From positions 14,271 to 78,270 of the forward strand of contig JAZGAD010000010.1 of assembly GCA_036444275.1 (NCBI GenBank): a stretch of DNA of 64,000 nucleotides, read 5' to 3'. Source of the stretch: Candidatus Hydrothermarchaeales archaeon (GTDB lineage: Archaea; Hydrothermarchaeota; Hydrothermarchaeia; Hydrothermarchaeales; JAZGAD01). Under the pieces are notes generated by a model. That model made no database searches. It was not told the origin of the DNA and saw only the letters and a program-made list of their open reading frames with translations. The position numbers and the translations under genes are program-made. Below, piece by piece: positions 31,114 to 50,292 of this stretch. Position 1 is the stretch's first letter. Each line of letters opens with the position of its first letter.

Positions 31114-31752
31114 ATGCTCATGAGCGATGCTGCACTCCTAGATAGGCTGAGAGATGACATTATGAATTTCGATTTCGAAGACATAGAAGAAGCTTGCCTA
31201 CACGCACTTGAAGCTGGAACCCCTATAGCAGAGATCGTGGATGCCATGCAGGAGGGTATGAAGACAGTGGAGATGCGCTACCAGAGGGAGGAGTATTACC
31301 TGCCTGAGCTCGTCATGGCCGGAGAAACAATGAATGAAGCCCTCGCCGTCCTCCGCCCGCATATGGGGAAAGAAGTTCAAAAAGGGATAGTGGTAGTTGG
31401 AACCATAAGAGGAGACCTCCATGATGTGGGAAAGAATCTTCTGGGAAACCTCCTTGAGGGTGCTGGCTTCTCGGTCTATGATCTCGGGGTTGATGTAAAG
31501 GCAGGGGATTTCATACAGGCAGTGAAAGAGAGGCAAGCAGGTGTGATATGCATGTCTGCCCTTATCTCAACTTCATTGAGGGAGATGCCAGCTGTAATTA
31601 AGTGCCTTGAGCAAGAGAGCTTTAAGAGACAGATTAAGGTCCTAGTCGGAGGAGGTGCTGTCAGCAGAGGTTTCGCGGAGAGAATAGGTGCAGATGCCTA
31701 TGCCAGTGACGCTCTAGAAGGCGTGGCGATAGTGAAGAGATGGCTTGCTTAG
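31114..31752 (+). CDS. Methyltransferase-system corrinoid protein
   Basis: GDLHDVGKN (DxHxxG), SAL, GGG, GADAY. Confidence 0.9.
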   Translation: MLMSDAALLDRLRDDIMNFDFEDIEEACLHALEAGTPIAEIVDAMQEGMKTVEMRYQREEYYLPELVMAGETMNEALAVLRPHMGKEVQKGIVVVGTIRGDLHDVGKNLLGNLLEGAGFSVYDLGVDVKAGDFIQAVKERQAGVICMSALISTSLREMPAVIKCLEQESFKRQIKVLVGGGAVSRGFAERIGADAYASDALEGVAIVKRWLA

Positions 31753-32491: not shown

Positions 32492-33509
32492 ATGGATACG
32501 GCTGGGAGGATAACCGTCAGCTTCCCATATAATCCTTCCTACATTACAAAGATAAAAAGCATAAAAGGTCACAGGTGGCATCCTGAAGAAAAATACTGGC
32601 GTGTGCCATACTCTGAGCTTGAAAACCTCTTATCTGTCTTTGATGGCGAGAAGGCTGATATCGACTCCGCTCTCTATTTCGAGCCCCTGAGAAAAGAGCT
32701 TGCATCGAGGAAGTACAGCCGGAGAACGATGAAGATGTATCTGCAGTACAATGAGGATTTCTTGAGGTTTGCAAGGAAAACTCCTTACAAGATTTCCAAT
32801 AGCGACGTGAGGGATTATCTGTATCACTTGGCGGAGGAGAGGGATGCATCTGCCTCTACCCTGAATATTGCTATAAATGCGTTGAAGTTCTACTATGGTG
32901 AGATCTTAAAGCGGGGGTTTGCTTATGGGATTAAGAGGCCTAAGAAGGATAAGAAAATGCCCGTTGTATTAAGTCCGGAGGAAGTTTCCAAGATTTTATC
33001 TTCACTTTCAAACATCAAGCATAAAGCCATTCTTATGCTTATGTATTCTGCTGGATTAAGAGTTGGTGAAGTTGTGAAGTTGAGGGTTGAGGATATAGAT
33101 ACTGGAAGAAAGTTAATTCATATCCGTGGTGGGAAAGGAAGGAAAGATCGCTATACTATACTTTCAGATGTTGCATTGGAGACCCTCAAAGTATATATCA
33201 ACGCCTGCAATCCAGAAAATTGGCTTTTTCCTGGGGGGAAAGGATAGAGGGCATGTTACCACAAGAACTGTGCAAAGGATATTTGAAGATGCCGTCAGAG
33301 AGGTCGGTGTTGGCAAAGACGTTAGCGTTCATTCTTTGAGACATAGCTTTGCAACACATCTATTAGAAAGCGGCGTAGATTTGAGGTATATTCAGGAATT
33401 GTTAGGGCACAAAAGCAGTAAAACGACAGAGATATACACTCATGTGAGCAACAAGTCTTGGAGCAGAATAAAAAGCCCTCTGGATCTAATTCAAAGAGGT
33501 GGGACATGA
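32492..33509 (+). pseudogene. Integron-integrase-like tyrosine recombinase split by a 1-nt frameshift
   Basis: SAM-like N-domain, [34 protein letters not shown]; break at the G6 run 33233-33238. Confidence 0.9.
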
Positions 33510-33536
33510 GGGAGTTTGGTAGCATCCGGGATGGGT

Positions 33537-33606
33537 ATATGCGCAATGCAGATATAATTCTAAATAGGGATGATATACGCAATGCGTATATGAACGAGTT
33601 AGGCGA
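33537..33606 (+). other. attI-like site
   Basis: Two related palindromes 36 bp apart followed by GTTAGGC core at 33598-33604. Confidence 0.7.
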
Positions 33607-33654
33607 AATTTTTAAATCGCCTTTATAAGAACTTAAAAAAGGAATGTGAAATAG

Positions 33655-35055
33655 TTGAATATGAAAGCTTTAATACTTGCCGCTGGAGACGGTGGCAGAT
33701 TGGGCAACTTAACTAAAAATAAACCCAAGCCCCTGATTAAACTTTTGGGATTAACTTTGATCGAAAGAGTAATATTAACTGCAAAACAAGCAGGCATTAA
33801 AGAATTCGTGATAGTTTTTGGTTATCTGGGTGACAAAATAAAAGCAAAATTGGGAACTGGAGATAGGTATGGAGTAGAAATAAACTATATCGAAAATAAT
33901 GACTGCCAAAAAGAAAATGGGATCTCTGTATTAAAGGCCAAAGGATTGTTAAATGAAAACTTCATCCTGTTAATGTCAGACCATATCTTTGATAATCGTA
34001 TTCTGAAAGAACTTATCGATTATGATACAAAAAGTTCAGTTGTTTTAGCTATTGATAGAAGAAAATCTCTACCAGGAGACACAAAGGTTCTGGAGAAGGA
34101 AGGAAGAATTGTTGATATCGGTAAAAATATAGAAGAATCAAACTGCATAGATACGGGTATCTTCTTGTGCTCACCAAAAATATTTTCTCATATTGAAGAA
34201 GCAGTAAAAGAAGGTAAAACTGAGCTTGCACATGATATTGCTAAAGCTGTTAAGAACAGAGATGCAGAAATATTCGACATCACGCAAATTAACAGCTATA
34301 TCCCGAGCATGCGGAAGGAGATTAAAGCTTTCTGGATAGATATTGATACAAAGGAGGATTTAATCAAAGCAAAAAAGCTTTTAATTGAGAATGCCTGTAA
34401 AGGACGAAATGACCTGCTTGCAACCTATGTGAATAAGCCAATAGAAAATTTTATTGTAAGCAGATTGGCGAACACGCAGATTACACCAAACCAGGTTACT
34501 ATACTAACAAACATAGTTGCTTATACATCCACATTTTTATTTCTCGAAGGATATCTATTGTTTGCTTCCATTCTCACCTTTATCGTTTCATTTATGGACG
34601 GTGTGGACGGAAAACTTTCAAGAGTGAAAATAGCCTTTTCAAATATTGGGAAAATGGAGTACGCCTTCGATTTTCTTTATGAGCATTCATGGTATATCGC
34701 CTTAGCCATCTATCTATCAAAGGACTATGGACTATCAGCGATTTTACTGTGCACATTCATACTCCTGTTTGATGGTTTTTCTCATTTTTGCAGACAGGCG
34801 TTTGGGAAGGCAATAAAGGACCGCCCATTAACAGATTATGGACGAATTGAACGGCTATTCAGAAAATTTGATGGTAGGAAGAACAGTTATATAATTTTTA
34901 TCTTAATAGGTGTTTTGCTAAATGCACCTTTCTGGTCATTAGTTGCAATATCTGTATGGTCATTGGTCAGTGCTATATTTTATTCTTCAAGGGCGATTTT
35001 GCATTTATATCGAGCCGATAAATCAACTCAGGGACCATATGGGAGCAAAAGATGA
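33655..35055 (+). CDS. Bifunctional inositol-1-phosphate cytidylyltransferase / CDP-alcohol phosphotransferase (IPCT/DIPPS-like)
   Basis: LAAGDGGR..KP NTP-transferase domain fused to a TPNQVT..DGVDGKLSR membrane domain. Confidence 0.85.
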   Translation: MNMKALILAAGDGGRLGNLTKNKPKPLIKLLGLTLIERVILTAKQAGIKEFVIVFGYLGDKIKAKLGTGDRYGVEINYIENNDCQKENGISVLKAKGLLNENFILLMSDHIFDNRILKELIDYDTKSSVVLAIDRRKSLPGDTKVLEKEGRIVDIGKNIEESNCIDTGIFLCSPKIFSHIEEAVKEGKTELAHDIAKAVKNRDAEIFDITQINSYIPSMRKEIKAFWIDIDTKEDLIKAKKLLIENACKGRNDLLATYVNKPIENFIVSRLANTQITPNQVTILTNIVAYTSTFLFLEGYLLFASILTFIVSFMDGVDGKLSRVKIAFSNIGKMEYAFDFLYEHSWYIALAIYLSKDYGLSAILLCTFILLFDGFSHFCRQAFGKAIKDRPLTDYGRIERLFRKFDGRKNSYIIFILIGVLLNAPFWSLVAISVWSLVSAIFYSSRAILHLYRADKSTQGPYGSKR

Positions 35056-35132
35056 AGATAAGAATGATGTGGCTTGGGAAGGTCGTCAACGGACCTTCCA
35101 TCCACCTGAAATTAGTAGGGAGGGCTTGAACA

Positions 35133-36257
35133 ATGAAGATCGCTTACGTATCAACCTATCTCCCCAAACAGTGTGGGATAGCCACCTACACGGATTATCT
35201 CATTCACGGTCTCAGAGAGGTGGATCCGGCATTGGAGATTAAGATCATTGCCGAACAAGGAGCATCTCCTATCAAACAAGATAAACTTGAAGTGATCCCC
35301 TCCTGGGATAGAAACGAGGATTATGTAGAACCTATCATCTCACGCACAAAGGGTGCAGATGTAATCCACATTCAGCACGAATACGGCATATACAAATTTG
35401 ATGATAGATTACCATTATTACTCCAGGGATTGGACCCAGATGCCCGGAAGGTGATAACCATCCATTGCGTGAGACCAGCTCAGTTCTCCGAAAGAGATGC
35501 TGTAGATGAGAATTTTGCAGCAAAAATCGCTCAACTTGCCGATCAGGTCATCGTACACCTTGAGTCGCAAAAAGCAATCCTGACACGACTTGGAATACCA
35601 TCAGGAAAGATTCACATTATTCCCCATGGAACAGTGCTTAGTGATGAGGATAAAGAGGCTTCACGGAAGAGGCTCGGACTGCCCAAGGACGCAAAGATAC
35701 TTCTCATGTTCGGGTTTGTCAAGAAACACAAGTGTTTACACATCGTTCTTGAGGCCCTCGTTGAGATATTGGAGAAATTCAAAGATATATATCTATTTGT
35801 GGCCGGAGGTCTTGCTCCAATAGCCTCACAGAAGGACAGGGACTATGCAGAATATGTGGGCAAGAGGATAGCGGAACTGGGGCTTCAGAAGAACGTCATC
35901 TACCCAAACAGGTTCTTTCCCAACGAAGATGTGCCATATCTGTTGGGGGCATCTGACATTATCCTGTTTCCTTACTATGAGGAGGACCGCTCTGCCTCGG
36001 GCTCATTTCACCTGGCCATTGGTGCGAAAAAACCAGTTATTGCTTCGAGGATACCCAAGTTTGAAGAACTGAGAAATATCTGCGATGAACTTCTTGTCCT
36101 TCCGTATAACTCTTCGGGAATTGCAAAAGTAGTCATTCGTCTTTTTGAAGACTCAAAATTTCGGCAGTATGTAGTCAATCGCACCGAAGAATACAGAAAT
36201 CTTACCTCCTGGCAAACCGTAGCGCACCAACACTTGAAATTGTATAAGGGAGTTTGA
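35133..36257 (+). CDS. GT4-like glycosyltransferase
   Basis: CGIATY, HIQHEYG, FGF..KK, PY...SASG. Confidence 0.85.
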   Translation: MKIAYVSTYLPKQCGIATYTDYLIHGLREVDPALEIKIIAEQGASPIKQDKLEVIPSWDRNEDYVEPIISRTKGADVIHIQHEYGIYKFDDRLPLLLQGLDPDARKVITIHCVRPAQFSERDAVDENFAAKIAQLADQVIVHLESQKAILTRLGIPSGKIHIIPHGTVLSDEDKEASRKRLGLPKDAKILLMFGFVKKHKCLHIVLEALVEILEKFKDIYLFVAGGLAPIASQKDRDYAEYVGKRIAELGLQKNVIYPNRFFPNEDVPYLLGASDIILFPYYEEDRSASGSFHLAIGAKKPVIASRIPKFEELRNICDELLVLPYNSSGIAKVVIRLFEDSKFRQYVVNRTEEYRNLTSWQTVAHQHLKLYKGV

Positions 36258-36258
36258 G

Positions 36259-37299
36259 ATGAAGATAGGAATGATGACCGCTTGGAACCAAGATGTAGGA
36301 CCTTCTATTCATGCCGAGCTGATCGGCAGAGAATGGGTGAAGATGGGTCATGAGCTTAGAATTTTTTCCTTCCTTAAGTCAGATTTTCATGGCACAGCCA
36401 TTGTTGGTCAGGATGAGGAGTATGTGCTCCGATGTTTTACTACATCTACGGCAGAAAGACCATTTTTGGATGCTCGTCCCTTCGTAGAATTCCATCCCGA
36501 TATTTTCATTACCCAAGATCTTGGGACGTTGCCAATGGATGCTCTCGCAAAGATTTTCCACCTTATAAAAAAAGAAGCAAAGACGATAACCGTGATCCAC
36601 GATCGAATGCTTTCATCAAATCCATCTTTTTATCAATTTGAATGGGATGCGATTATTTGTAGCGATAAAAGGTACGTAGAATTTCTTAAAGAGGCTTATC
36701 CAGAGGAAAAAATCTATGTAATACCCCATCCATACAATAAGTGGAGAGCCGGGGATAAGATTCGGGCAAGAAAGAAATTAGATCTGCCACTCGATAAGAA
36801 GATTATCCTGAACTTTGGTCAAAGAGTAAAGGATTTCAAAGAAACACTTCCTGCGATTTCCGAACTTCAGTCCAACTATCCGATTCTTGTTTTGGTAGTT
36901 ACCAGAGAAGAAATAGAAGAACTCAGAAGAGAAACAACTTTACCAATTGAGATAAGGGAAGAGAGCCCATGTATAGAAAGGGTTTATGAGTATTTACACG
37001 CATCAGATGCCATGGTACTTCACCGTAAATCTATTGAGGGGATTGTCTATTCAAGCACCACTTATCAGTGCTTAGGATCAGGTTGTTCCGTCGTTGCGCT
37101 AAACTCAAACTTCTTCCAGCCATTTGGTGTGGAAGTCTTAAAATATGATGACTTAGCGGGCTTAAAGGAGTGCCTAATCGATATATTTAAAGAAGGAAAA
37201 AGATATAAAACAGCAAAATTATTAGCGGAAAGGGTGGTAAAAAGAAATACTCCACAAGAGATAGCAACTAAATTCATTAAACTTTTTGAATCGCTGTGA
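36259..37299 (+). CDS. GT-B glycosyltransferase (paralogue of 38056-39099)
   Basis: MKIGMMTAWN..HAE..W.KMGH N-terminus shared with the paralogue. Confidence 0.7.
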   Translation: MKIGMMTAWNQDVGPSIHAELIGREWVKMGHELRIFSFLKSDFHGTAIVGQDEEYVLRCFTTSTAERPFLDARPFVEFHPDIFITQDLGTLPMDALAKIFHLIKKEAKTITVIHDRMLSSNPSFYQFEWDAIICSDKRYVEFLKEAYPEEKIYVIPHPYNKWRAGDKIRARKKLDLPLDKKIILNFGQRVKDFKETLPAISELQSNYPILVLVVTREEIEELRRETTLPIEIREESPCIERVYEYLHASDAMVLHRKSIEGIVYSSTTYQCLGSGCSVVALNSNFFQPFGVEVLKYDDLAGLKECLIDIFKEGKRYKTAKLLAERVVKRNTPQEIATKFIKLFESL

Positions 37300-37307
37300 T
37301 GGGTAAA

Positions 37308-37424
37308 ATGAAATCTAAAACTTTTGTTGGTAGAGAGAATAAATTAAAGCTACTGGAACACTATTTTGAAGAAACCATCAAAAACAAAAAAAGGCATTGT
37401 TATTTTGCTTACATGAGGAAATAG
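37308..37424 (+). pseudogene. Archaeal ATPase N-terminal fragment
   Basis: MKSKTFVGRENKLKLL.. (FVGRE motif) then truncated. Confidence 0.4.
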
Positions 37425-37427
37425 GTA

Positions 37428-37772
37428 TTGGCAAACAGACGCTTAACACCCTGGGGCAGCTGGCAGGTTCTTGCTGAAGGCCGAGAATATAAGGTAAAAC
37501 TGATTAAAGTGAAGCCAGGGCACCGCTTTAGCCTCCAGTTGCATAATCGTAGAGATGAGCACTGGATGGTTGTTTCAGGTCAAGCAAGAGTAGAGATTGG
37601 AGACAAAACAGTTAAAGCTAAACCCGGAAAATACATATTCATTCCTAAAAAGACGAAGCACCGGCTGCAAAATCCGGGAAAGAGTCGTCTCGTGGTAATT
37701 GAGGTTCAAAGGGGTAAATATCTAGAAGAGGACGATATTGTTCGCCAAGAAGATAATTATGGAAGGTCATGA
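37428..37772 (+). CDS. Type II mannose-6-phosphate isomerase cupin domain
   Basis: PWGSW, SLQLH..RDEHW, HRLQN, EVQRG.YLEEDDIVR. Confidence 0.9.
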   Translation: MANRRLTPWGSWQVLAEGREYKVKLIKVKPGHRFSLQLHNRRDEHWMVVSGQARVEIGDKTVKAKPGKYIFIPKKTKHRLQNPGKSRLVVIEVQRGKYLEEDDIVRQEDNYGRS

Positions 37773-38032
37773 AACTTAATTCAGAGATTTTTAGAGAGCA
37801 CGATATAAGGGGAGTGGTTGATAAGGACTTGGATCCGGAGGTGGTGGAAGAAATTGGTAGGGCCTTTGGGGCTTATATTGGGAAGGGTAAGGTGGCGGTA
37901 GGACAGAGGGGATATTGAGATAATGAGCAAAGATTTAAAACTTAGCAACTAGAGTTAGAAGAGATTAATGATATCTTCATCGAAAGGCTTAAGAAGTATC
38001 CTCAAATGGACATTAAGCCGTTTAGAGGATAA
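37769..38032 (+). pseudogene. Phosphomannomutase/phosphoglucomutase remnant (internal deletion)
   Basis: MKLNSEIFREHDIRGVVDKDL..IGRAFG..VAVG then stop at 37918; a possible C-terminal remnant follows. Confidence 0.75.
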
Positions 38033-38055
38033 TTATTTTGGAAGGAGGCTAGAGG

Positions 38056-39099
38056 ATGAGAATTGCTATGATGAGTGCTTGGAACACAGATAGTGGAGTA
38101 GCTGTACATGCAGAACCATTGGGCAAAGCCTGGATAAAGATGGGACATAAGTTAACTGTATTTACTTTCATCAAGGATGACTTCCATGGGGAGGGGTTTA
38201 CCGGCGAAGATGAGGAGTATGTAGTCAGATGTTTTGGCACTCAAGAGCATACCAACTTCTTAGACCCCCGGCCTATCCTCACCACGGACTTTGATATCTT
38301 CGTAGTTCAGGATTTAAGGATACTTCCAGTAGAAAAATTAGCCAAAGTATTTAGCCTGATTAAACAGCGGGCCATGACAATACATATAGTTCATGAAAAT
38401 AAATTACCTGATGATGCCTGGTTTTATCAATTTGACTGGGACAAGGTAGTCTATTTTGATCAGAGGCAGGAATTCCTAAAAGAGATATACCCTGACGCTA
38501 AACTTATCCCTTTTCCTTGTTATGAACTAAGAAGGCGTGATAAGCTTGAGGCAAAAAAGAGGTTAGAGCTCCCCCTGGATAAGAAAATCATCTACTCTTT
38601 TGGCCAACGCGGCTATCATTCCTATCTTCGAAACTTACCTGATGAGATTAAAGATAAGGCAGTGCTTCTACATGTTGTCTCCAAAGAATACCAGATGCTT
38701 GAAGAGGAATCTCCTCCCGATTGGATGATTATTAGAAGAGAGGATGTTTTATCCCGCGAGAAATTTAATGACTATCTCTTTGCCTCGGATGCGGCTATTT
38801 TTCATAAGTTCCAGAGCCGTTATCATGCCGTTGTTTCCTCTACGGTCTTTCAGGCATTAGGTTGTGGTTGCCCAATCTTAGTTCCCCGGCAATCGGATTT
38901 CTTTCATCCTATGCAGAATGAGGTCATACGTTATGGAGATACTCCCGACTTAAATAGGAAGCTGCTTGAATTATTTGGAGATGAACAGACATCTCAAACA
39001 GTCCAAGACGCAGCAGAAGGGTTTGTGTCAATGAATTCACCAGAAAAAATTGCCAAAAGGTATATCGGGCTATTTACTGAGGTCTTAAGAGCAAGATAA
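38056..39099 (+). CDS. GT-B glycosyltransferase (paralogue of 36259-37299)
   Basis: MRIAMMSAWNTDSG..HAE; VSST.FQALG.GCP. Confidence 0.7.
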   Translation: MRIAMMSAWNTDSGVAVHAEPLGKAWIKMGHKLTVFTFIKDDFHGEGFTGEDEEYVVRCFGTQEHTNFLDPRPILTTDFDIFVVQDLRILPVEKLAKVFSLIKQRAMTIHIVHENKLPDDAWFYQFDWDKVVYFDQRQEFLKEIYPDAKLIPFPCYELRRRDKLEAKKRLELPLDKKIIYSFGQRGYHSYLRNLPDEIKDKAVLLHVVSKEYQMLEEESPPDWMIIRREDVLSREKFNDYLFASDAAIFHKFQSRYHAVVSSTVFQALGCGCPILVPRQSDFFHPMQNEVIRYGDTPDLNRKLLELFGDEQTSQTVQDAAEGFVSMNSPEKIAKRYIGLFTEVLRAR

Positions 39100-39134
39100 G
39101 ATGTGCAAGAAAAATTTTATCATCGAGCCATTTT

Positions 39135-39407
39135 GTGGATTATCCAAACAACCCAATTTTAGCTCCGGCAAAAGGTTTCACCTCACAAGGAATATATAAC
39201 CCTACAGTGATTAAAGAAGGAAAAAAATTCTTTATGCTATTCAGGGCTGAGGCAGAAGATGAGTTGACGGGAAGGATAGGGCTTGCTAAAAGTAGTGATG
39301 GCATCCAATTTAGCTTGCACCCCGAACCAGTAATAGTGCCTTCTGCGGATTTCGATAAGTTCGGCTGTGAAGACCCCCGGGTGGTGAGATTTAAAGATAC
39401 TAAGTAA
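39135..39407 (+). pseudogene. Truncated GH130-like glycosidase/phosphorylase
   Basis: NPIL..YNP..RIGLA.S.DG..GCEDPRV then stop. Confidence 0.75.
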
Positions 39408-39410
39408 AAT

Positions 39411-39661
39411 GTGGGAAGAATCAAGATTGCTATTATAGGAGTAGGCAACTGCGCCAGTTCTCTGGTGCAAGGTTTATGGTTCTATAAAGATTCATCAGAA
39501 GAAAAAGTTATCGGCTTAATGCACTACGATGTTGGTGGGTACAAGGTATGGGATTTGAGGTAGCGGCTGCCTTTGATATCGATAAGCGAAAGGTTGGCAA
39601 GCCCTTGAATGAGGCGATATTTGCCAGGCCGAACTGCAGGAGAATTTATAAAATTATTTAA
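39411..39661 (+). pseudogene. ino1: Inositol-3-phosphate synthase fragment, frameshifted
   Basis: [18 protein letters not shown]..., frameshift near 39553, then [25 protein letters not shown]. Confidence 0.85.
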
Positions 39662-39685
39662 CAAGTTGTTATAAGGGGTAATGTA

Positions 39686-40855
39686 ATGAACACTTTGGAA
39701 GAATTAGGAGATGGCAAGGTTATCGAAATCGAATCAGGAGCGACCATTTTTAAACTGGAGTCCGATGAAAAAAACCCTATTGTCAGACCCCAAGACCTCG
39801 GGCTCACCTGGAATGAGAATGGCGAATCGAAGATTGGGGCAGTTTTCAACGGTGGGGCTGAATTTTTCGAGAATAAGGTTATTCTTTTGCCAAGGTGTCA
39901 TAGAGATTACCGAAAGGGCGAATTCTTTGACGAAAAGTTAGGCATTGAGAGGACCTGCCTGGAAAACTACATTTCCGAGGTTTGGCCTTTGGTGAGCGAG
40001 GATGGCGTCCACTTCACCAGATTCCATAACGTGGTAATCCGGGGCGATGGCACCGACCATCAGGACTTTACCTACGGAATAGAGGACATCCGAATCGTTA
40101 AGTACGGCCGGAGATACCTGCTGATCGGGTGTGGGAAGATAAAACCTCCGTTTAAAGGCGGCAATGCGGATCGAATTGCCATTTACACAACCAAAGATTT
40201 TGTGAAGATTAACTATCAGGGCATAGTGGACTCCTTTGACTCGCGCAATGCGGTTCCCTTCTCCGAGCCGGTAAATGGACAACACTGGATACTCCTGCGT
40301 TTTCATACTAATATTCACATAGATTTTCTTGAAGCCGGCATAAATCAATTGCTGAATCCTTCCCAGCACACAGAACAGTGGGATGAAATCTATGAGCGAC
40401 AGAGCCAGAATCTCCTTTTAGAAGCTGGGCACTACCCGCACGAAAAGCAGAAAATCGGCCCGGGCCCCCAGGTGCTCAGAACCGATAGGGGTTGGTTGCT
40501 CATCTACCATGCTGTTGGTGAGATAGAATATAATATCTGCAAAGCCTACGGGTTGACGGAAAAAATTGAAAGAGGATACTCCATCTGCGCTGCCCTTTTG
40601 GACTTAGACGATCCACGAAAGGTGCTTTGTCGAACCAGAAATCCAATCTATATTCCTTCAACCCCTTACGAATTATATGGTAACGATCAATATCCAGTGG
40701 ATGTGTCTGCAGTCGTTTTTCCCATGGGTGCTATTGTTCGAAAAGAAAAACTGATTCTCTATGCCGGAGCTGGCGATAAATACATCATCCTTTTGAGCTG
40801 CGATCTTGATAACTTAGTTAATTATTTATGGGAGTATTGCAAGTACATTGCATAG
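39686..40855 (+). CDS. GH130-like glycosidase/mannoside phosphorylase
   Basis: AVFNGGA, GIEDIRI, KIGPG, WLLIYH, VVFP.G, YAGAGD. Confidence 0.8.
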   Translation: MNTLEELGDGKVIEIESGATIFKLESDEKNPIVRPQDLGLTWNENGESKIGAVFNGGAEFFENKVILLPRCHRDYRKGEFFDEKLGIERTCLENYISEVWPLVSEDGVHFTRFHNVVIRGDGTDHQDFTYGIEDIRIVKYGRRYLLIGCGKIKPPFKGGNADRIAIYTTKDFVKINYQGIVDSFDSRNAVPFSEPVNGQHWILLRFHTNIHIDFLEAGINQLLNPSQHTEQWDEIYERQSQNLLLEAGHYPHEKQKIGPGPQVLRTDRGWLLIYHAVGEIEYNICKAYGLTEKIERGYSICAALLDLDDPRKVLCRTRNPIYIPSTPYELYGNDQYPVDVSAVVFPMGAIVRKEKLILYAGAGDKYIILLSCDLDNLVNYLWEYCKYIA

Positions 40856-40879
40856 GAACTACCATTGACTTGGCACATC

Positions 40880-40949
40880 GCCTAACAACGGCTAAAAGGC
40901 TCCGCCCAAATTTGCTCCGCTAACTTCTTTTATCCGCAATACGTTAGGT
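40880..40949 (+). repeat. attC-like site 1
   Basis: GCCTAAC-A-ACGGCTAAAAG ... ACTT-CTTTTATCCGC-AATAC-GTTAGGT. Confidence 0.8.
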
Positions 40950-40997
40950 GAAATGCCTAAGCCCGCTTTGATGGTAAAATTAAAATAAGAATATGTC

Positions 40998-41318
40998 ATG
41001 GGTGACTGTATGAAAGGCAAAAACACTCTTACAGAAATAATGGACATCTTTAAAAAATATGAAAAGGAACTGAACAGAAGGTACGGGATCAAAAAGATTG
41101 GGATATTTGGCTCGTACCTAAGAAGCGAAGCTGGAGAGGAGAGCGATCTAGATATACTTGTAGAATTTGAACAAGACGTAGATATAGGGCTTTTAAAATT
41201 TGTAGAGATAGAGAACTATCTGAGTGACCTTCTTGGTGTTAAAGTGGATTTGGTGGAAAAATCTGCATTAAAACCGAGGATAGGACGGCGTATATTGAAA
41301 GAGGTTGTTTACGCATGA
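40998..41318 (+). CDS. MntA-like nucleotidyltransferase antitoxin (cassette 2)
   Basis: [16 protein letters not shown] (GSX10DXD). Confidence 0.9.
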
Positions 41319-41659
41319 AGAGAGAGGTTGGAGACTATATTCAAGATGTCATCGACGCTACGAATAAAGGCATGAGATTTGTTGAGGGTGTGGAATATGA
41401 AGATTTCATTCATGATGATAAAACCGTATTTGCTGTGATAAGAGCTATAGAGGTTATTGGTGAAGCAGTCAAAAATATACCTGAAGATGTAAAAATGGAG
41501 TATCCCGAAATTCCCTGGAGAGATATTGCCGGAATGAGAGATAAGCTTATTCATGCTTATTTTGGAGTTAGCATCAAAAGAGTATGGAAAGCTATAAAAG
41601 AAGAAATTCCTCCATTAAAACCTGTATTTGAAAAAATGCTTAAGGACTTAGAAAAATGA
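41315..41659 (+). CDS. HepT/DUF86 toxin (cassette 2)
   Basis: [16 protein letters not shown] (RX4HXY); ATGA coupling to the antitoxin. Confidence 0.9.
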
Positions 41660-41735
41660 GGTCTATAATATTCGGTAGGCTTGGGTACTCTGCGGATTTG
41701 CATTGCAAATCCTTGCCCTCGCTATCGCTCGGGTC

Positions 41736-41886
41736 GCCTAACAGGCGGGTATGCGGTTCGAAATGATGAAAAGTGGTCTCACCCAGATTCCTTTGACAAC
41801 GGTTATATTCAGCTTTCACATTGCTCTCACCTGATGAAATCGGGATGCTCGCAGTCGGCACTTCGCATACCCGCGAAACGTTAGAC
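41736..41886 (+). repeat. attC-like site 2
   Basis: GCCTAAC-AG-GCGGGTATGCG ... ACTT-CGCATACCCGC-GAAAC-GTTAGAC; perfect 11-bp arms. Confidence 0.85.
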
Positions 41887-41930
41887 GCAATAAATTTCAA
41901 TAGTTTGATTTTATATGGAGATATACAATC

Positions 41931-42365
41931 ATGAAAAAGTTTCGAGATGTCGATGAGATAAAAGTAAAATTAGAAGAAGTGAATGCCTTATTTGAAAAAG
42001 GTGATCTTGCATGTTTTTTGTATCTATCAAGTTATATTGAAGATCGCCTGAAACGTAATCTAATGGTTCATTGTTTGTCAGAAGACAGATATTCTAAAGA
42101 GATTGAACATTATATTTTCAACTTAAATCTCTATAATTTAATTGAAATATCCAACTTATTCGGATTAATTACTAAAGAAACTTATACGGATTTGGAAATT
42201 TATAGAAAGTTTAGAAATGAATTGTTTCATGATGCAATTTTCAATGAAGCAATTGATAGAGAGTATGAGAAATATTATTCATTAGGTTGTAAAATAATAT
42301 GTGAACTTCATGACACGGGTGTCGAAATATGCGACGCAATAACCAAAAAAGTAGACATTTCCTAA
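41931..42365 (+). CDS. Putative HEPN-domain protein (cassette 3)
   Basis: Helical protein with IE..L and RNELFH (RX4H) motif; GGAG RBS; AT-rich. Confidence 0.65.
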   Translation: MKKFRDVDEIKVKLEEVNALFEKGDLACFLYLSSYIEDRLKRNLMVHCLSEDRYSKEIEHYIFNLNLYNLIEISNLFGLITKETYTDLEIYRKFRNELFHDAIFNEAIDREYEKYYSLGCKIICELHDTGVEICDAITKKVDIS

Positions 42366-42375
42366 AATTTACATC

Positions 42376-42459
42376 GCCTAACAGAGCGTATCTGGTTCGC
42401 TATCGCTCACCTAAATCTCTCCCGTTGCCTGAACTTCAGATACGCTCGGAACGTTATAT
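42376..42459 (+). repeat. attC-like site 3
   Basis: GCCTAAC-A-GAGCGTATCTG ... ACTT-CAGATACGCTC-GGAAC-GTTATAT; perfect 11-bp arms. Confidence 0.85.
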
Positions 42460-42515
42460 GCAATTTCAAAGAAGTTACTATTCCCCAATTTGAGTTATTA
42501 AAGGAGGTCTAACTT

Positions 42516-43427
42516 ATGTCAATGAAGTCTAAAAGAAAAGACCCCACACCTAAACAGAAAGAAAAATTGCTCTCTATGAATGCGGGAGTTTGCTGTGTAT
42601 GCAAAACAAGAGGGCAAGGTGTTAATTTTCATCATATTGACGGTGACAATACCAACACTGTCATTGAAAACTTAGCTGTTCTTTGCATCAAGGATCATGA
42701 TGCATATCATAGACCTCAGGTTTATACAGAGATGAAACATTTAGAGCTTGGAGCTGAAAAGATATTAAAATGCAAGCTTGAATGGGAATCATTTATAAAA
42801 GCAGCACAAAAAGAAAGTCCCAAAGTGCTAGCTGTAATAAATATTTACGGGACTGAAGAAAGCATACATTCTATGAGATTAATTTTCCAGACAATTGAAT
42901 CAAAAATAATTTTTGAACGACTATATCATCTACTTACAGGATCACCTAAAAGTTGGATAGATTCTGCAATTGATGAAGTTCGCTGGCTTGGATCAAATAT
43001 TCCACTTTCAATAGTAGATAAACCACTTCCAATTGAATATTGCCCTTGCTGTGATAAATCTTTAGCGAATGTAATTGATAGTAATGTTGCAAAGAGGATA
43101 ACGGCAAGCAATTGGGAACAAAATTCTATCTGTTCTATTTATATCAATCCTTCACAACCTTCTTTGGCAATTATACTATTGTATGAAAAAGAAGTTCTTC
43201 TTACCGGATCACTTCATAAATGTGGTGAATGCCTACATTTCATTTGTGATAATTTCGAGGAAAGAGTTCCAATTAAAAAATCGCCCAGCGTGAGAACTCA
43301 GGCAACTAGAATTTTATCTAAAGTTTTAAGTGAGTGGCACCCAGCCCAAATACTTATTGGAACAGGAGATGAAGATAATCCTGAGATCATTGACAATTTG
43401 AACCTATCACGAATATGGGAGAATTAA
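42516..43427 (+). CDS. HNH endonuclease-domain protein with unknown C-terminal region (cassette 4)
   Basis: CCVC..HHIDG..N....NLAVLC..DH..H; AGGAGG RBS. Confidence 0.75.
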   Translation: MSMKSKRKDPTPKQKEKLLSMNAGVCCVCKTRGQGVNFHHIDGDNTNTVIENLAVLCIKDHDAYHRPQVYTEMKHLELGAEKILKCKLEWESFIKAAQKESPKVLAVINIYGTEESIHSMRLIFQTIESKIIFERLYHLLTGSPKSWIDSAIDEVRWLGSNIPLSIVDKPLPIEYCPCCDKSLANVIDSNVAKRITASNWEQNSICSIYINPSQPSLAIILLYEKEVLLTGSLHKCGECLHFICDNFEERVPIKKSPSVRTQATRILSKVLSEWHPAQILIGTGDEDNPEIIDNLNLSRIWEN

Positions 43428-43465
43428 GATTATTACTCAAATAACTCAAATTATGATGAAACGGC

Positions 43466-43528
43466 GTATAACAGAGCATACCTGGCTTCGTGCCTTCGGC
43501 GGACTTCAGATACACGCAACCGTTAAGT
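43466..43528 (+). repeat. attC-like site 4 (degenerate arms)
   Basis: GTATAAC-A-GAGCATACCTG ... ACTT-CAGATACACGC-AACC-GTTAAGT. Confidence 0.75.
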
Positions 43529-43569
43529 GAAAAAGCCCAAAGTTTATTGAATTAAAATGAGGCAAATCC

Positions 43570-44094
43570 GTGAAAGATAATAAACTTCAACAGCTCAAAG
43601 TTGTAATCTCCCTTCTTGAGAAGTATAATAAAATCGAAGAAAAATTAAAAGAGCTCAAAATCGTTCGAACGAGAAAGGTTATCTCAGAAGTTGGCGAGTG
43701 GTATGTCTCTATTCTTTTTAATTGTAAAATAAATACTAACCCGTCTGAAAAAGGATTCGATTGTATTGACCCTGAGACTGGGAAGAAGATTGAAATAAAG
43801 ACTATCAGAAAATCAGAAAGTAATCCTATTGGCTATAGGTTATCTAAGGATAAAGTCGAGCGGCAAATTTTTGATGAACTTATTATTTTGAGGTTGGGAG
43901 ATAATTTTCGGATAAGACAATTGTTTAAGTTGGATAGAGATGATATTTCGGAGGAGAATTTTTCCCTTCTTAGCAGTGCGAAATATAATTTGAGTTGGAA
44001 TTCCTTAAAAAAGGGAAACTTCGAAGTTACTCATGAAAATGCTTTACAAAGAGGGTTAGATGATATAGAAGTATTTAGAATGCTAATGGAATAA
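43570..44094 (+). CDS. PD-(D/E)XK nuclease-like protein (cassette 5)
   Basis: SEVGE..KGFDC...IEIK motif. Confidence 0.7.
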   Translation: MKDNKLQQLKVVISLLEKYNKIEEKLKELKIVRTRKVISEVGEWYVSILFNCKINTNPSEKGFDCIDPETGKKIEIKTIRKSESNPIGYRLSKDKVERQIFDELIILRLGDNFRIRQLFKLDRDDISEENFSLLSSAKYNLSWNSLKKGNFEVTHENALQRGLDDIEVFRMLME

Positions 44095-44107
44095 TATGGG
44101 CTTCTTC

Positions 44108-44183
44108 GCCTAACAGTGTGTTTGCGAAGTGCCGAAGGCATTTGGGTGAGCATGATGCACCGCAAACACACGAACCATTACGC
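44108..44183 (+). repeat. attC-like site 5 (core GTT changed to ATT)
   Basis: GCCTAAC-A-GTGTGTTTGCG ... CGCAAACACAC-GAACC-ATTACGC; perfect 11-bp arms. Confidence 0.8.
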
Positions 44184-44248
44184 GACATTGCGAAATATAA
44201 GAATTTGCGTCTTTTAGATATTCAAAATGGAAATTTCAGGCGCAGTTA

Positions 44249-48933: not shown

Positions 48934-50292
48934 TTATCCCGTTGCTTTTGCAAGGAAATTCTCGATCATCTTGGGATAGGAGAGCACATGTAAATGGGAG
49001 TAACTGGCTAGAGTATTCCCACGGAGAATGCCGTCCCTTTTTCCATCTATGCCTCTCCCCCTTATCATCTCGCAGACGTATTCAACGTCGCCTAAAAGCT
49101 TAATAGTCGAGTGATGGAACTCGTGCCCCACTAGAGTGGCACCGCTATCGCTTATAGGGTTATCCTTCTCGACCCTGCTTACAGTATATCCTAGGGCTTG
49201 AAACGTCGACTTCATCTGGGTCTTAATCGGCAGGAAGCCCACCATATCGTACTCCCTGCCCCCGGTGGTCATCTTCTCTCCGAGATACATCAAGCCGCCG
49301 CACTCTGCATAAACTGGATTACCGGACTCACAGAAATCTAAGATCTCACCCTTGAGGGAGGTGTTCTCCTCCAGCTTCTCTGCGAATACCTCTGGGAATC
49401 CTCCCCCGATGTAGAGAGCATCCACATCAGGAAGTCTGCGGTCTTTCATGGAATCTATGTATAACACATGTGCCTTGGCAGCGAATGCATCTATGGTGTC
49501 CTCGTAGTAGAAATTAAACGCCCGATCCCTGACTATACCAATCGTTACGCCCAAATCGTCATCCTTGAATAGCTCGTTCTGCTCAATCTCCTCCATACTA
49601 CCAGCATCCATAGCCAGTTCGATTATGCCGTCAACGTCAACGTGCTTCTCTACGAACGCGCTGAGGTACTCAAAGAGCTCATCTATCTCCTCCCGTTCAT
49701 AGGCAGGTACCAAGCCGAGGTGCCTTTCAGGTATCCCTACCTTCGGGTCTCTGGGTAGCGCTCCAAAGACCTTCATATCTGCTAACTGCTCTACAGCGAG
49801 CTTTGCCTTTTGGATATGCCTCTCAGAGCCCAGCCTGTTCAGAATTACTCCTTTCACGTTTACGCCCTCATCAAAGACCTTGAAGCCCATGGTAATGGCA
49901 GCAGCGCTCCTAGCAATGCGTTCCACGTTGGCTATAACGAGGGTAGGAGCAGACAAGACCTTACTCACATGTGCAGTGCTCCCCCTTTCATCCAAGGCAT
50001 CATGGGAATCGAAAAGTCCCATGGCACCTTCTACCACCGCGATATCAGCTCCCTGAGAATTCCTGGTAAAGCACTCTTTTATGTCACCATCTTTCATCAT
50101 GAAGCCGTCAAGGTTTCTCGAGCGCCTGCCAGTGGCAAAATTGTGGTAGCTGGGGTCTATGAAGTCAGGTCCGGTCTTGAAAGGCTGTACTTCGTAGCCC
50201 CTGTTACGGAGTGCCCTCATTAGACCTATAGAGATAACAGTCTTACCAGCCCTGCTATTCGTCCCTCCCAGCACTACCCTGGGTATATCCAT
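48934..50292 (-). CDS. cbiA: Cobyrinate a,c-diamide synthase family (CbiA/CfbB)
   Basis: GKT, GPDFID, EGAMG, ERHLGL, AECGG, GHEFH. Confidence 0.8.
   Translation of the reverse strand: MDIPRVVLGGTNSRAGKTVISIGLMRALRNRGYEVQPFKTGPDFIDPSYHNFATGRRSRNLDGFMMKDGDIKECFTRNSQGADIAVVEGAMGLFDSHDALDERGSTAHVSKVLSAPTLVIANVERIARSAAAITMGFKVFDEGVNVKGVILNRLGSERHIQKAKLAVEQLADMKVFGALPRDPKVGIPERHLGLVPAYEREEIDELFEYLSAFVEKHVDVDGIIELAMDAGSMEEIEQNELFKDDDLGVTIGIVRDRAFNFYYEDTIDAFAAKAHVLYIDSMKDRRLPDVDALYIGGGFPEVFAEKLEENTSLKGEILDFCESGNPVYAECGGLMYLGEKMTTGGREYDMVGFLPIKTQMKSTFQALGYTVSRVEKDNPISDSGATLVGHEFHHSTIKLLGDVEYVCEMIRGRGIDGKRDGILRGNTLASYSHLHVLSYPKMIENFLAKATG

Follow-up and report, generated by a model that had tools for sequence, protein, structure and literature searches.

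A tyrosine recombinase gene heading an array of five co-oriented gene units, each closed by a hairpin-forming site, is present in a 64,000-nt stretch of DNA (the window; contig JAZGAD010000010.1, positions 14,271-78,270 of the forward strand, assembly GCA_036444275.1) from Candidatus Hydrothermarchaeales archaeon, a member of the Hydrothermarchaeota, the assembly of which comprises 1.49 Mb in 61 contigs and is 81% complete. With a probability of about 0.72, we consider this locus to be a chromosomal integron of a non-canonical class, characterized by an integrase of the IntI clade devoid of the IntI-specific insertion, an insertion site (attI) at the 3' end of the integrase gene and attC-like sites with a one-sided spacer. 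The anatomy of the locus, the covariation within its sites, the conserved attI and the recurrent pairing of recombinase and sites across taxa with differing cargo are direct observations; catalysis, the use of single-strand substrates and the role of an additional N-terminal domain of the recombinase are what we infer only.

Anatomy of the locus

The locus occupies a stretch of lower G+C content (0.33-0.46 as compared to approximately 0.47 across the contigs), which starts with the recombinase gene and is flanked by a corrinoid-protein gene (31114-31752) and by AglB-like and glycosyltransferase genes (from 44338; all coordinates are those of the window). Markers of an archaeal chromosome in the window are archaeal-type LonB (941 bits), archaeal-type leucine pathway genes, GatA/GatB and a CfbB-like amidase. 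The recombinase, a GTTAGGC core and five co-oriented units had been proposed in an earlier note on this DNA, and all of them have been confirmed (Table 1), with unit boundaries located exactly at G|TT.

Table 1. Features of the integron-like locus; for the sites, the minus strand denotes the folded (bottom) strand
Feature	Position	Strand	Description
IntI-like tyrosine recombinase without the IntI-specific insertion	32492-33509	+	two frames, 32492-33247 then 33243-33509 (+1)
N-terminal extension of the recombinase, ~60 residues	32492-32690	+	precedes the SAM-like core-binding domain; SAM_4 match starts at residue 64
attI-like region	33535-33604	+	palindrome 1 33535-33555, palindrome 2 33573-33591, GAACGA 33592-33597, core GTTAGGC 33598-33604
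Unit 1, 7.3 kb	33599-40943	+	six genes and a gene fragment, glycan synthesis
Unit 1 cargo	33599-40943	+	NTP-transferase/CDP-alcohol phosphatidyltransferase, three glycosyltransferase-like, mannose-6-phosphate isomerase-type cupin, GH130 fragment and gene
attC-like site 1	40880-40949	-	R'' 40880-86 GCCTAAC / R' 40943-49 GTTAGGT; R1 76.2 bits
Cassette 2	40944-41880	+	MntA-like nucleotidyltransferase and HepT-like RNase, toxin-antitoxin pair
attC-like site 2, long variable loop	41736-41886	-	R'' 41736-42 GCCTAAC / R' 41880-86 GTTAGAC; R1 65 bits
Cassette 3	41881-42453	+	144-aa protein, no family match
attC-like site 3	42376-42459	-	R'' 42376-82 GCCTAAC / R' 42453-59 GTTATAT; R1 83.5 bits
Cassette 4	42454-43522	+	303-aa protein, weak HNH nuclease motif
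attC-like site 4	43466-43528	-	R'' 43466-72 GTATAAC / R' 43522-28 GTTAAGT; R1 57 bits
Cassette 5	43523-44177	+	174-aa DUF6998 protein, type II methyl-directed restriction enzyme-like; PADLOC mREase_II E 2.1e-12
attC-like site 5, last in array	44108-44182	-	R'' 44108-14 GCCTAAC / R' 44176-82 CATTACG; R1 66.8 bits

The recombinase

Over the two pieces of the recombinase, Pfam recognizes the domains Phage_int_SAM_4 and Phage_integrase, the latter (PF00589) in both of them, and the conserved motifs of the catalytic region are all present over the two pieces (alignment A2). Among the NCBIfam models, TIGR02249 for integron integrases fits best; its profile positions 4-178 and 234-313 of 315 are matched, and positions 179-233, the IntI-specific insertion, remain without a match. 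Equally, residues 180-238 of the IntI4 chain in structure 2a3v, the I2 helix region near patch III, correspond to merely 17 residues in a full-length homologue, with which archaeal XerA (4a8e) aligns as one piece. The insertion is also absent in 10 of 10 related recombinases from other loci, and intact homologues of 340-350 aa from archaea and bacteria, 60-77% identical, are without it, so that its absence characterizes the family and does not reflect decay. The earlier claim of a recombinase without the IntI insertion thus holds, as does the suggestion that a model of IntI could miss it: TIGR02249 scores 144.3 and 105.7 bits with the two pieces and 204-226 bits with intact relatives, below the cut-off of 265 bits, while the canonical IntI of one of the genomes analysed (G064) reaches 343 bits.

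Two features at the ends of the protein deserve mention. The N-terminal extension resembles the HARP family (PF07443) over residues 8-48 with an E-value of 0.0043 and 17 bits (Pfam cut-off 25), and matches at E<=0.1 are found in 12 of 25 family members, the best at 3.3e-4; HARP domains have a fork-binding and junction-binding role. At the C-terminus, an SPLD tail aligns with the SPLS that ends the IntI4 chain 2a3v, a tail generally known from IntIs.

A quick maximum-likelihood tree of 39 proteins unites the N-extended family with two canonical IntIs and with four relatives that have neither insertion nor extension, apart from XerA/XerC/XerD (SH-aLRT support of 100); it gives no firm order of branching within this group. 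Since it clusters with canonical IntI and apart from the Xer proteins, the recombinase is a homologous variant rather than an independent invention, and the designation as a 'parallel' platform in the earlier note was too strong.

Architecture and covariation of the sites

For every model search, a covariance model built from the five sites of the window only (R1) has been used. On the 64-kb window, R1 identifies the five sites at 57-84 bits and otherwise only three weak matches of 26.2, 13 and 11.8 bits, which coincide with three of these sites read on the other strand; with Rfam at gathering thresholds, a tRNA is the only match in the window. On the bottom strand of each site, TAAC is followed by a G with 3-4 further bases and by the first arm of an 11-bp stem; past a loop of 22-108 nt come the second arm, one single base and GTTA. 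The hairpins running RYYTAAC...GTT that had been described for the unit ends are present at all five positions, with the restriction that site 5 ends with ATT. In the L stem, four pairs differ between site 2 and site 3 by changes on both sides (alignment A1), and three pairs of site 4 are G.T wobbles on the bottom strand only.

This geometry has been followed in an alignment of 45 sites, the five of the window and 40 from 20 other loci (alignment A4). There, 91.7% of the cells are paired, 10 of the 11 L-stem pairs have changed on both sides, and the covariation score amounts to 0.61 as compared to 0.18 in shuffled alignments (0 of 500 reach the observed value) and to 0.05-0.10 with slid partners. 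Among the L-stem cells, 15 are G.T wobbles on the bottom strand and one is A.C, corresponding to a top-strand wobble; this 15:1 bias points to the bottom strand being the folded strand, as in classical integrons. The spacer of the 5' arm has a length of 4-5 nt in 42 of 45 sites and that of the 3' arm of 1 nt in all 45, and the L stem is free of bulged bases in 33 of 45 sites. The classical type is seen in the R boxes, in the G that follows AAC and in the G|TT boundaries (PMC2727003).

Classical attC sites possess extrahelical bases on the R''-L'' arm, the role of which has been stressed, together with a two-sided unpaired central spacer (Bouvier et al., 2009; PMC2727003). Indeed, the attC sites of aadA1 and dfrA1 from a class 1 integron on an Escherichia coli plasmid, folded in the same way as controls, show a two-sided spacer and two bulged bases on the 3' arm, and R1 gives them merely 12.1 and 2.6 bits. 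The non-classical hairpin geometry noticed earlier is thereby substantiated. In the solved complex, the I2 region of IntI contacts the extrahelical bases; an I2-less recombinase and sites without extrahelical bases would thus form a coherent combination.

The remainder of the 1.49-Mb genome contains three lone sites recognized by R1, C27:20844-20941 (44.5 bits), C13:11939-12039 (39.7 bits) and C60:26651-26738 (31.1 bits) (loci L088-L090). The sites on C27 and C13, the two examined, are located just past gene 3' ends, and the C27 site lies approximately 300 nt from the contig end; the three might represent either cassettes standing alone or members of another array.

The attI-like region

A core of the GTTRRRY type adjoining the integrase gene, and thus a putative attI, begins 89 nt past the recombinase stop codon and is preceded by two palindromes of 19-21 nt (Table 1); as judged from the sequence, the crossover would occur just after G33598. 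The layout of two palindromes followed by GAACGA-GTTAGGC is found after the stop codons of homologues in 12 of 12 aligned loci from bacteria and archaea (Nitrospirota, Thermodesulfobacteriota, Spirochaetota, Bacillota, Micrarchaeota and an archaeon of the same order), with AGTT invariant in all 12. Directly past the last site of the array, the sequence ACGCGACATTGCGAAATAT (44183-44215) resembles the attI palindromes by eye and is possibly a remnant of the original right flank of attI.

Recurrent pairing of recombinase and sites

A covariance scan for co-occurrence of hairpins and recombinase had been set beforehand as a test. When 80 loci encoding recombinase homologues (one genome per species, 848 kb) were scanned with R1, 56 matches were obtained at E<=1, of which 51 (33 at E<=0.01) are located downstream of and co-oriented with the recombinase, in 263 kb; no site in array orientation was found upstream of the recombinase in the 503 kb scanned there. 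The hairpins are thus tied to the recombinase family elsewhere. The remaining five matches lie upstream in divergent orientation at two loci with recombinases lacking the N-extension. Where at least 2 kb lie downstream of an N-extended recombinase, 15 of 21 loci are matched at E<=1 and 11 of 21 at E<=0.01. Loci with sites include Bacillota, Nitrospirota, Spirochaetota, Gemmatimonadota and other archaea, and the same order of gene and site with the same orientation recurs in at least 17 further loci, which belong to several phyla.

Individual loci illustrate this pairing. In an archaeon of the same order (G004), an intact homologue of 349 aa is followed by attI and two units with different cargo, a methylase with a CfbBI-type restriction enzyme and a 311-aa protein, which end with sites of 66.4 and 45.1 bits and are enclosed by housekeeping genes on both sides. 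A complete Desulfitobacterium genome contains at least eight one-gene units downstream of the gene, all of them ending with a site. In a plasmid-borne copy from Chryseobacterium, a transposase of the IS110 family and a group II intron are located inside the array, which has one site of 24.9 bits; relatives of IS110-family elements and of group II introns target attC in classical integrons. The transcription of the gene towards the array with the att site at its 3' end, put forward earlier as a distinguishing trait, is seen here and in related loci; it is not new, as archaeal integrons with attI downstream of intI have been described (Ghaly et al., 2022; PMC9668308).

As a separate observation, locus L034 from a gammaproteobacterial metagenome-assembled genome (198-8726 and 9947-10834) encodes a 295-aa recombinase without IntI insertion or N-extension, in the classical divergent arrangement beside four sites of the same class (38-47 bits).

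Units and cassette ends

The claim that cargo genes are unrelated to each other holds for Units 2-5, which encode a toxin-antitoxin pair, a 144-aa protein without match, an HNH-like and a DUF6998 protein, a varied cargo as is typical for integrons. Unit 1, with a G+C content of 0.36-0.46 versus approximately 0.47 for the genome, harbours no internal site detectable by R1, even with filters off, and may be a multi-gene cassette or a fusion after loss of sites; the first-position unit in G004 holds two genes, the restriction-modification pair.

Complementarity of cassette ends has been retained in the array. The start of Unit 1, TTAGGC, is complementary to its own R'' GCCTAAC at 7 of 7 positions. 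Equally, the start of Unit 4, TTATAT, is complementary at 6 of 7 positions to its own unusual R'' GTATAAC, for which the in-array R' GTTAAGT provides only 4 of 7. An exchange of circular cassettes at G|TT would leave just this complementarity of a unit to its own R''.

Contigs from public sequencing runs provide a further view on the units. The highest share of sampled words in any run is 0.37; contigs from four runs cover chiefly 34.8-41.2 kb and leave the flanks at 30.5-32.1 kb and 44.4-46.5 kb and the frameshift position of the recombinase uncovered, whereby non-coverage proves nothing. In another sample (run X8), the alignment of a contig with Unit 1 starts at 33601, preceded by 73 letters of a different sequence, and thus breaks within 3 nt of the crossover proposed above. 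A joint from 33609 to 42375 in an X5 contig has a shorter side of just 22 letters and is taken as a cross-match between similar sites of other arrays; back-joints in public contigs, the joined arms of which would not pair, are likewise regarded as cross-matches between sites of other arrays.

Within Unit 1, a 90-aa GH130 fragment (39135-39407) lies just upstream of the full GH130 gene (39686-40855). In a contig of run X5, 71 other letters replace the 469 nt between 39232 and 39702, so that this spot differs between samples. The unit also contains two paralogous glycosyltransferase-like genes (36259-37299 and 38056-39099; 346 and 347 aa), which share DNA repeats of 72-89% identity at a spacing of approximately 1790 nt.

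Distribution of the recombinase family

The recombinase is found in 2 of 60 relatives (E<=1e-40) and, counting the genome of the window itself, in 2 of 38 from the phylum (E<=1e-90), while the sole genome of the same family as that of the window has no copy; this patchy spread fits horizontal spread. A canonical IntI was found neither in the window's own genome at its 81% completeness nor in four of five other genomes carrying the platform. The fifth (G064) has one elsewhere, the surroundings of which contain no R1 site (best 11.9 bits) and yield nothing in a strict motif scan, a scan that recovers just 2 of the 5 sites of the window.

Plasmid-borne relatives lacking the N-terminal extension are common in Clostridium, Acinetobacter and rhizobia; one of them adjoins an IS91-family transposase and one is annotated as TnpF. 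Many family members stand alone on contigs of 1.3-2.5 kb (e.g. L003, L023, L025, L046, L048, L071 and L077), one with a stated coverage of 270, and others are located a few hundred bases from a contig end and directed towards it. Such a placement would result from breaks of the assembly at repeated sites or from a multi-copy element.

Side observations concern the host. With the model NF040815 for XerA at E<=1e-30, genomes of the same order as that of the window show the integron-like recombinase only (G004, 100% complete), nothing (G002, 98% complete) or a weak match of 113 bits (G005); judged from sequence, this order may be without a typical XerA. Downstream of the array, the gene at 48934-50292 on the minus strand encodes a protein of the cobyrinic acid a,c-diamide synthase family with 513 bits in the F430 CfbB model (cut-off 560), which hints at nickel-tetrapyrrole metabolism in the host.

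A possible mechanism

By analogy with classical integrons, the recombinase would insert circular cassettes by exchange between attI and attC at G|TT, and excision of cassettes would proceed by exchange between two attC sites. The attI site, with its two palindromes and GAACGA-G|TTAGGC, would be used in double-stranded form. In the attC-like sites, the bottom strand would fold into an R stem of TAAC/GTTA, a one-sided spacer of 4-5 nt, an L stem of 11 bp and a variable loop. The one-sided spacer, and possibly the N-terminal domain, might replace the extrahelical bases and I2 in strand choice and hairpin recognition.

Alternative explanations

An unlikely alternative, for which there are nevertheless several arguments, is that the enzyme acts Xer-like on double-stranded half-sites consisting of L', spacer and R', with the hairpin being incidental or a terminator. 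The recombinase is without I2, which is held to be an innovation for single-strand recombination (PMC7790495), and it scores as well with XerA 4a8e as with IntI4 2a3v (175 and 163 bits). Family NF040815, the model name of which also covers 'integron integrase', is at or near its cut-off of 220 bits in 10 of 10 intact homologues (226-248 bits in eight, 217.9 in L049 and 202.9 in L069; the window pieces reach 141.8 and 91.9 bits). Furthermore, L'-GAAC-GTTA resembles CGTATAT-GAACGA-GTTAGGC of attI. Recombination of half-sites, however, gives no reason for the complementarity of L'' and L', whose pairs covary almost throughout, and the excess of G.T over A.C pairs indicates that one particular strand folds. 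In addition, I2-less Xer recombinases do use a folded single-stranded phage site (PMC3442271).

[quoted passage not shown] The many members on short contigs or near contig ends, as expected for multi-copy elements, the plasmid relatives beside IS91-family transposases or annotated as TnpF and the patchy occurrence among relatives would agree with such an element. Repeated attC sites would, though, break contigs just downstream anyway. Moreover, an inserting element should sometimes land inside arrays, yet in 503 kb no site in array orientation was found upstream of any of the 80 genes; site geometry tracks the recombinase family and differs from the classical attC tested; and a canonical IntI was not found in four of the five carrier genomes.

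An ordinary archaeal integron with a decayed intI, in which one deletion removed the insertion and caused the frameshift, is very improbable. It is true that the frame breaks exactly where the IntI insertion would be and that attI downstream of intI is an arrangement known from archaeal integrons (PMC9668308). Intact homologues of approximately 345 aa, however, align gap-free across the break (alignment A2), which coincides with a run of six G at 33233-33238, so that a single extra homopolymer base accounts for it; the break itself may be a real mutation or an assembly error. Equally, the archaeal IntIs reported were accepted only upon a match to an IntI-specific profile (PMC9668308).

Chance, that is a CALIN located 7 kb from an unrelated site-specific recombinase, deserves just as little credence: 50 non-IntI recombinases near attC have been judged unrelated (Cury et al., 2016; PMC4889954) and 7.3 kb separate gene and first site, but the recurrence of order and orientation in several phyla and a conserved attI bearing the same GTTAGGC core speak against coincidence. 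Transcription terminators or repetitive extragenic palindromic (REP)-like repeats have been dismissed, as they leave the invariant TAAC/GTTA boxes, the complementarity of cassette ends and the tie to one recombinase family unexplained.

Weight of the evidence

Several points weigh against the interpretation of the locus as a non-canonical integron. It is based on computation, and no recombination has been observed; the only hints at cassette movement are indirect, namely the complementarity of cassette ends, the contig break at 33601 in another sample and the different cargo of G004. The recombinase frame is broken in the copy of the window, and public contigs do not span the break; R' of site 5 is degenerate. 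From these two defects it follows that the array of the window may be inactive, or else that the break is an assembly error. Compared with shuffled sequence, the folding energy is low for site 5 (z -3.6), with z-scores of -1.4 to -1.9 for sites 1-3 and of +0.97 for site 4; four of the five sites are thus not clearly more stable than shuffled sequence, and support for the sites stems from conserved position and covariation, not from stability. Alignment A4 has been fitted to the model, which favours pairing. Unit 1 is far above the usual size of a cassette. The likeness of the extension to HARP is under the Pfam cut-off, and the tree is the result of a quick search with only two canonical IntIs. 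An R1 match is missing in 6 of the 21 informative N-extended loci. A cruder geometry scan by script, which fills some gaps and produces many false matches in AT-rich DNA, shows seven evenly spaced sites in L082 and several in L053 and again nothing convincing in L022, L061 and L078. Finally, acquisition of the I2 helix has been reported to underlie single-strand recombination (Escudero et al., 2020; PMC7790495).

Relation to described systems

The locus shares with classical integrons such as class 1 and the Vibrio superintegron a recombinase of the same clade, an insertion site with GTTRRRY core beside the gene, co-oriented promoter-poor cassettes, palindromes of the type R''(RYYYAAC)-L''...L'-R'(GTTRRRY) with a variable loop, boundaries at G|TT, the preference for the bottom strand, the G after AAC and cargo of the toxin-antitoxin and restriction type. 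It deviates from them by the absence of the IntI insertion, the added N-terminal domain, an attI with two palindromes at the 3' end of the gene, the co-orientation of gene and array and by sites whose spacer is one-sided and which for the most part lack extrahelical bases.

Closest in setting are the archaeal integrons of Ghaly et al. (2022; PMC9668308), with which the locus has in common the archaeal host, attI directly downstream of intI and cargo rich in toxin-antitoxin and restriction genes. In the main text of that work, six IntIs are given for 539 attC sites, most arrays are CALINs without a recognised integrase, and reverse-oriented IntIs of Spirochaetota are mentioned. Because a match to the IntI profile was required, the array of the window would count as a CALIN, provided that the attC search of that survey detects its sites; the distinction between our locus and those IntIs is drawn from the criteria in the main text, and overlap is possible. 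In the sense of Cury et al. (2016; PMC4889954), the locus resembles a CALIN, having at least two attC-like sites less than 4 kb apart and no protein passing the IntI test. Unlike a CALIN, the array is headed, here and at other loci, by a member of one specific recombinase family together with a conserved attI, and it is therefore not integrase-less in a biological sense. The reading of the locus as a capture platform resembling an integron, with an integrase that does not pass the defining test for IntI and with sites deviating from classical attC geometry, is largely supported; it is one instance of a pairing that recurs across domains.

Xer and XerA proteins are, like the recombinase of the locus, simple tyrosine recombinases without I2 and with similar scores in hidden Markov models; an Xer without I2 exchanges one strand pair with a folded single-stranded site of the CTX phage (PMC3442271). 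Unlike XerA, the recombinase is not a conserved housekeeping single-copy gene (2 of 60 relatives), groups with IntI and carries the N-extension, and it is tied to cassette arrays and not to a dif site. The plasmid genes of NF040815, IS91-associated or TnpF-like, belong to the same model family and also lack the insertion; unlike the recombinase of the locus, they are mostly without the N-extension, their match starting at residue 68-110.

In the literature, the insertion has been described as 'not fully conserved' in an integron-like subgroup of tyrosine recombinases (Smyshlyaev et al., 2021; PMC8138268), and no link between this subgroup and attC-like arrays was found in the sources searched. 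Equally, no insertion-less, N-extended recombinase heading attC-like arrays was found described in the literature searched, which included few subscription journals and no supplements. Almost no complete integrons have been reported in Firmicutes (Cury et al., 2016; Neron et al., 2022; PMC4889954, PMC9024848). Surveys define the integrase by its extra domain; in them, integrons are nearly absent in Bacillota and rare in Archaea, and most archaeal arrays are without integrase (PMC4889954, PMC9024848, PMC9668308).

Significance

Beyond the locus itself, it appears possible, with chances slightly short of even, that the window contains a single instance of a second integron class, widespread and as yet undescribed, composed of an I2-less integrase with a HARP-like N-terminal domain, a bipartite palindromic attI at the 3' end of the gene and attC sites with a one-sided spacer and free of extrahelical bases. 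The compact pair of recombinase and site with its different structural rules might provide tools for cassette shuffling, and among its natural hosts are cultured strains for which the genome is complete, for example of Desulfitobacterium and Paenibacillus. The view that I2 enabled recombination of folded single strands would become directly testable (PMC7790495). Should the second class be real, recombination of hairpin cassettes would not depend on the I2 helix and may predate it. Equally, many CALINs in Archaea, Gram-positive and other bacteria would then be complete integrons, and a recurrent I2-less family would change the census of integrons and explain part of the CALIN puzzle.

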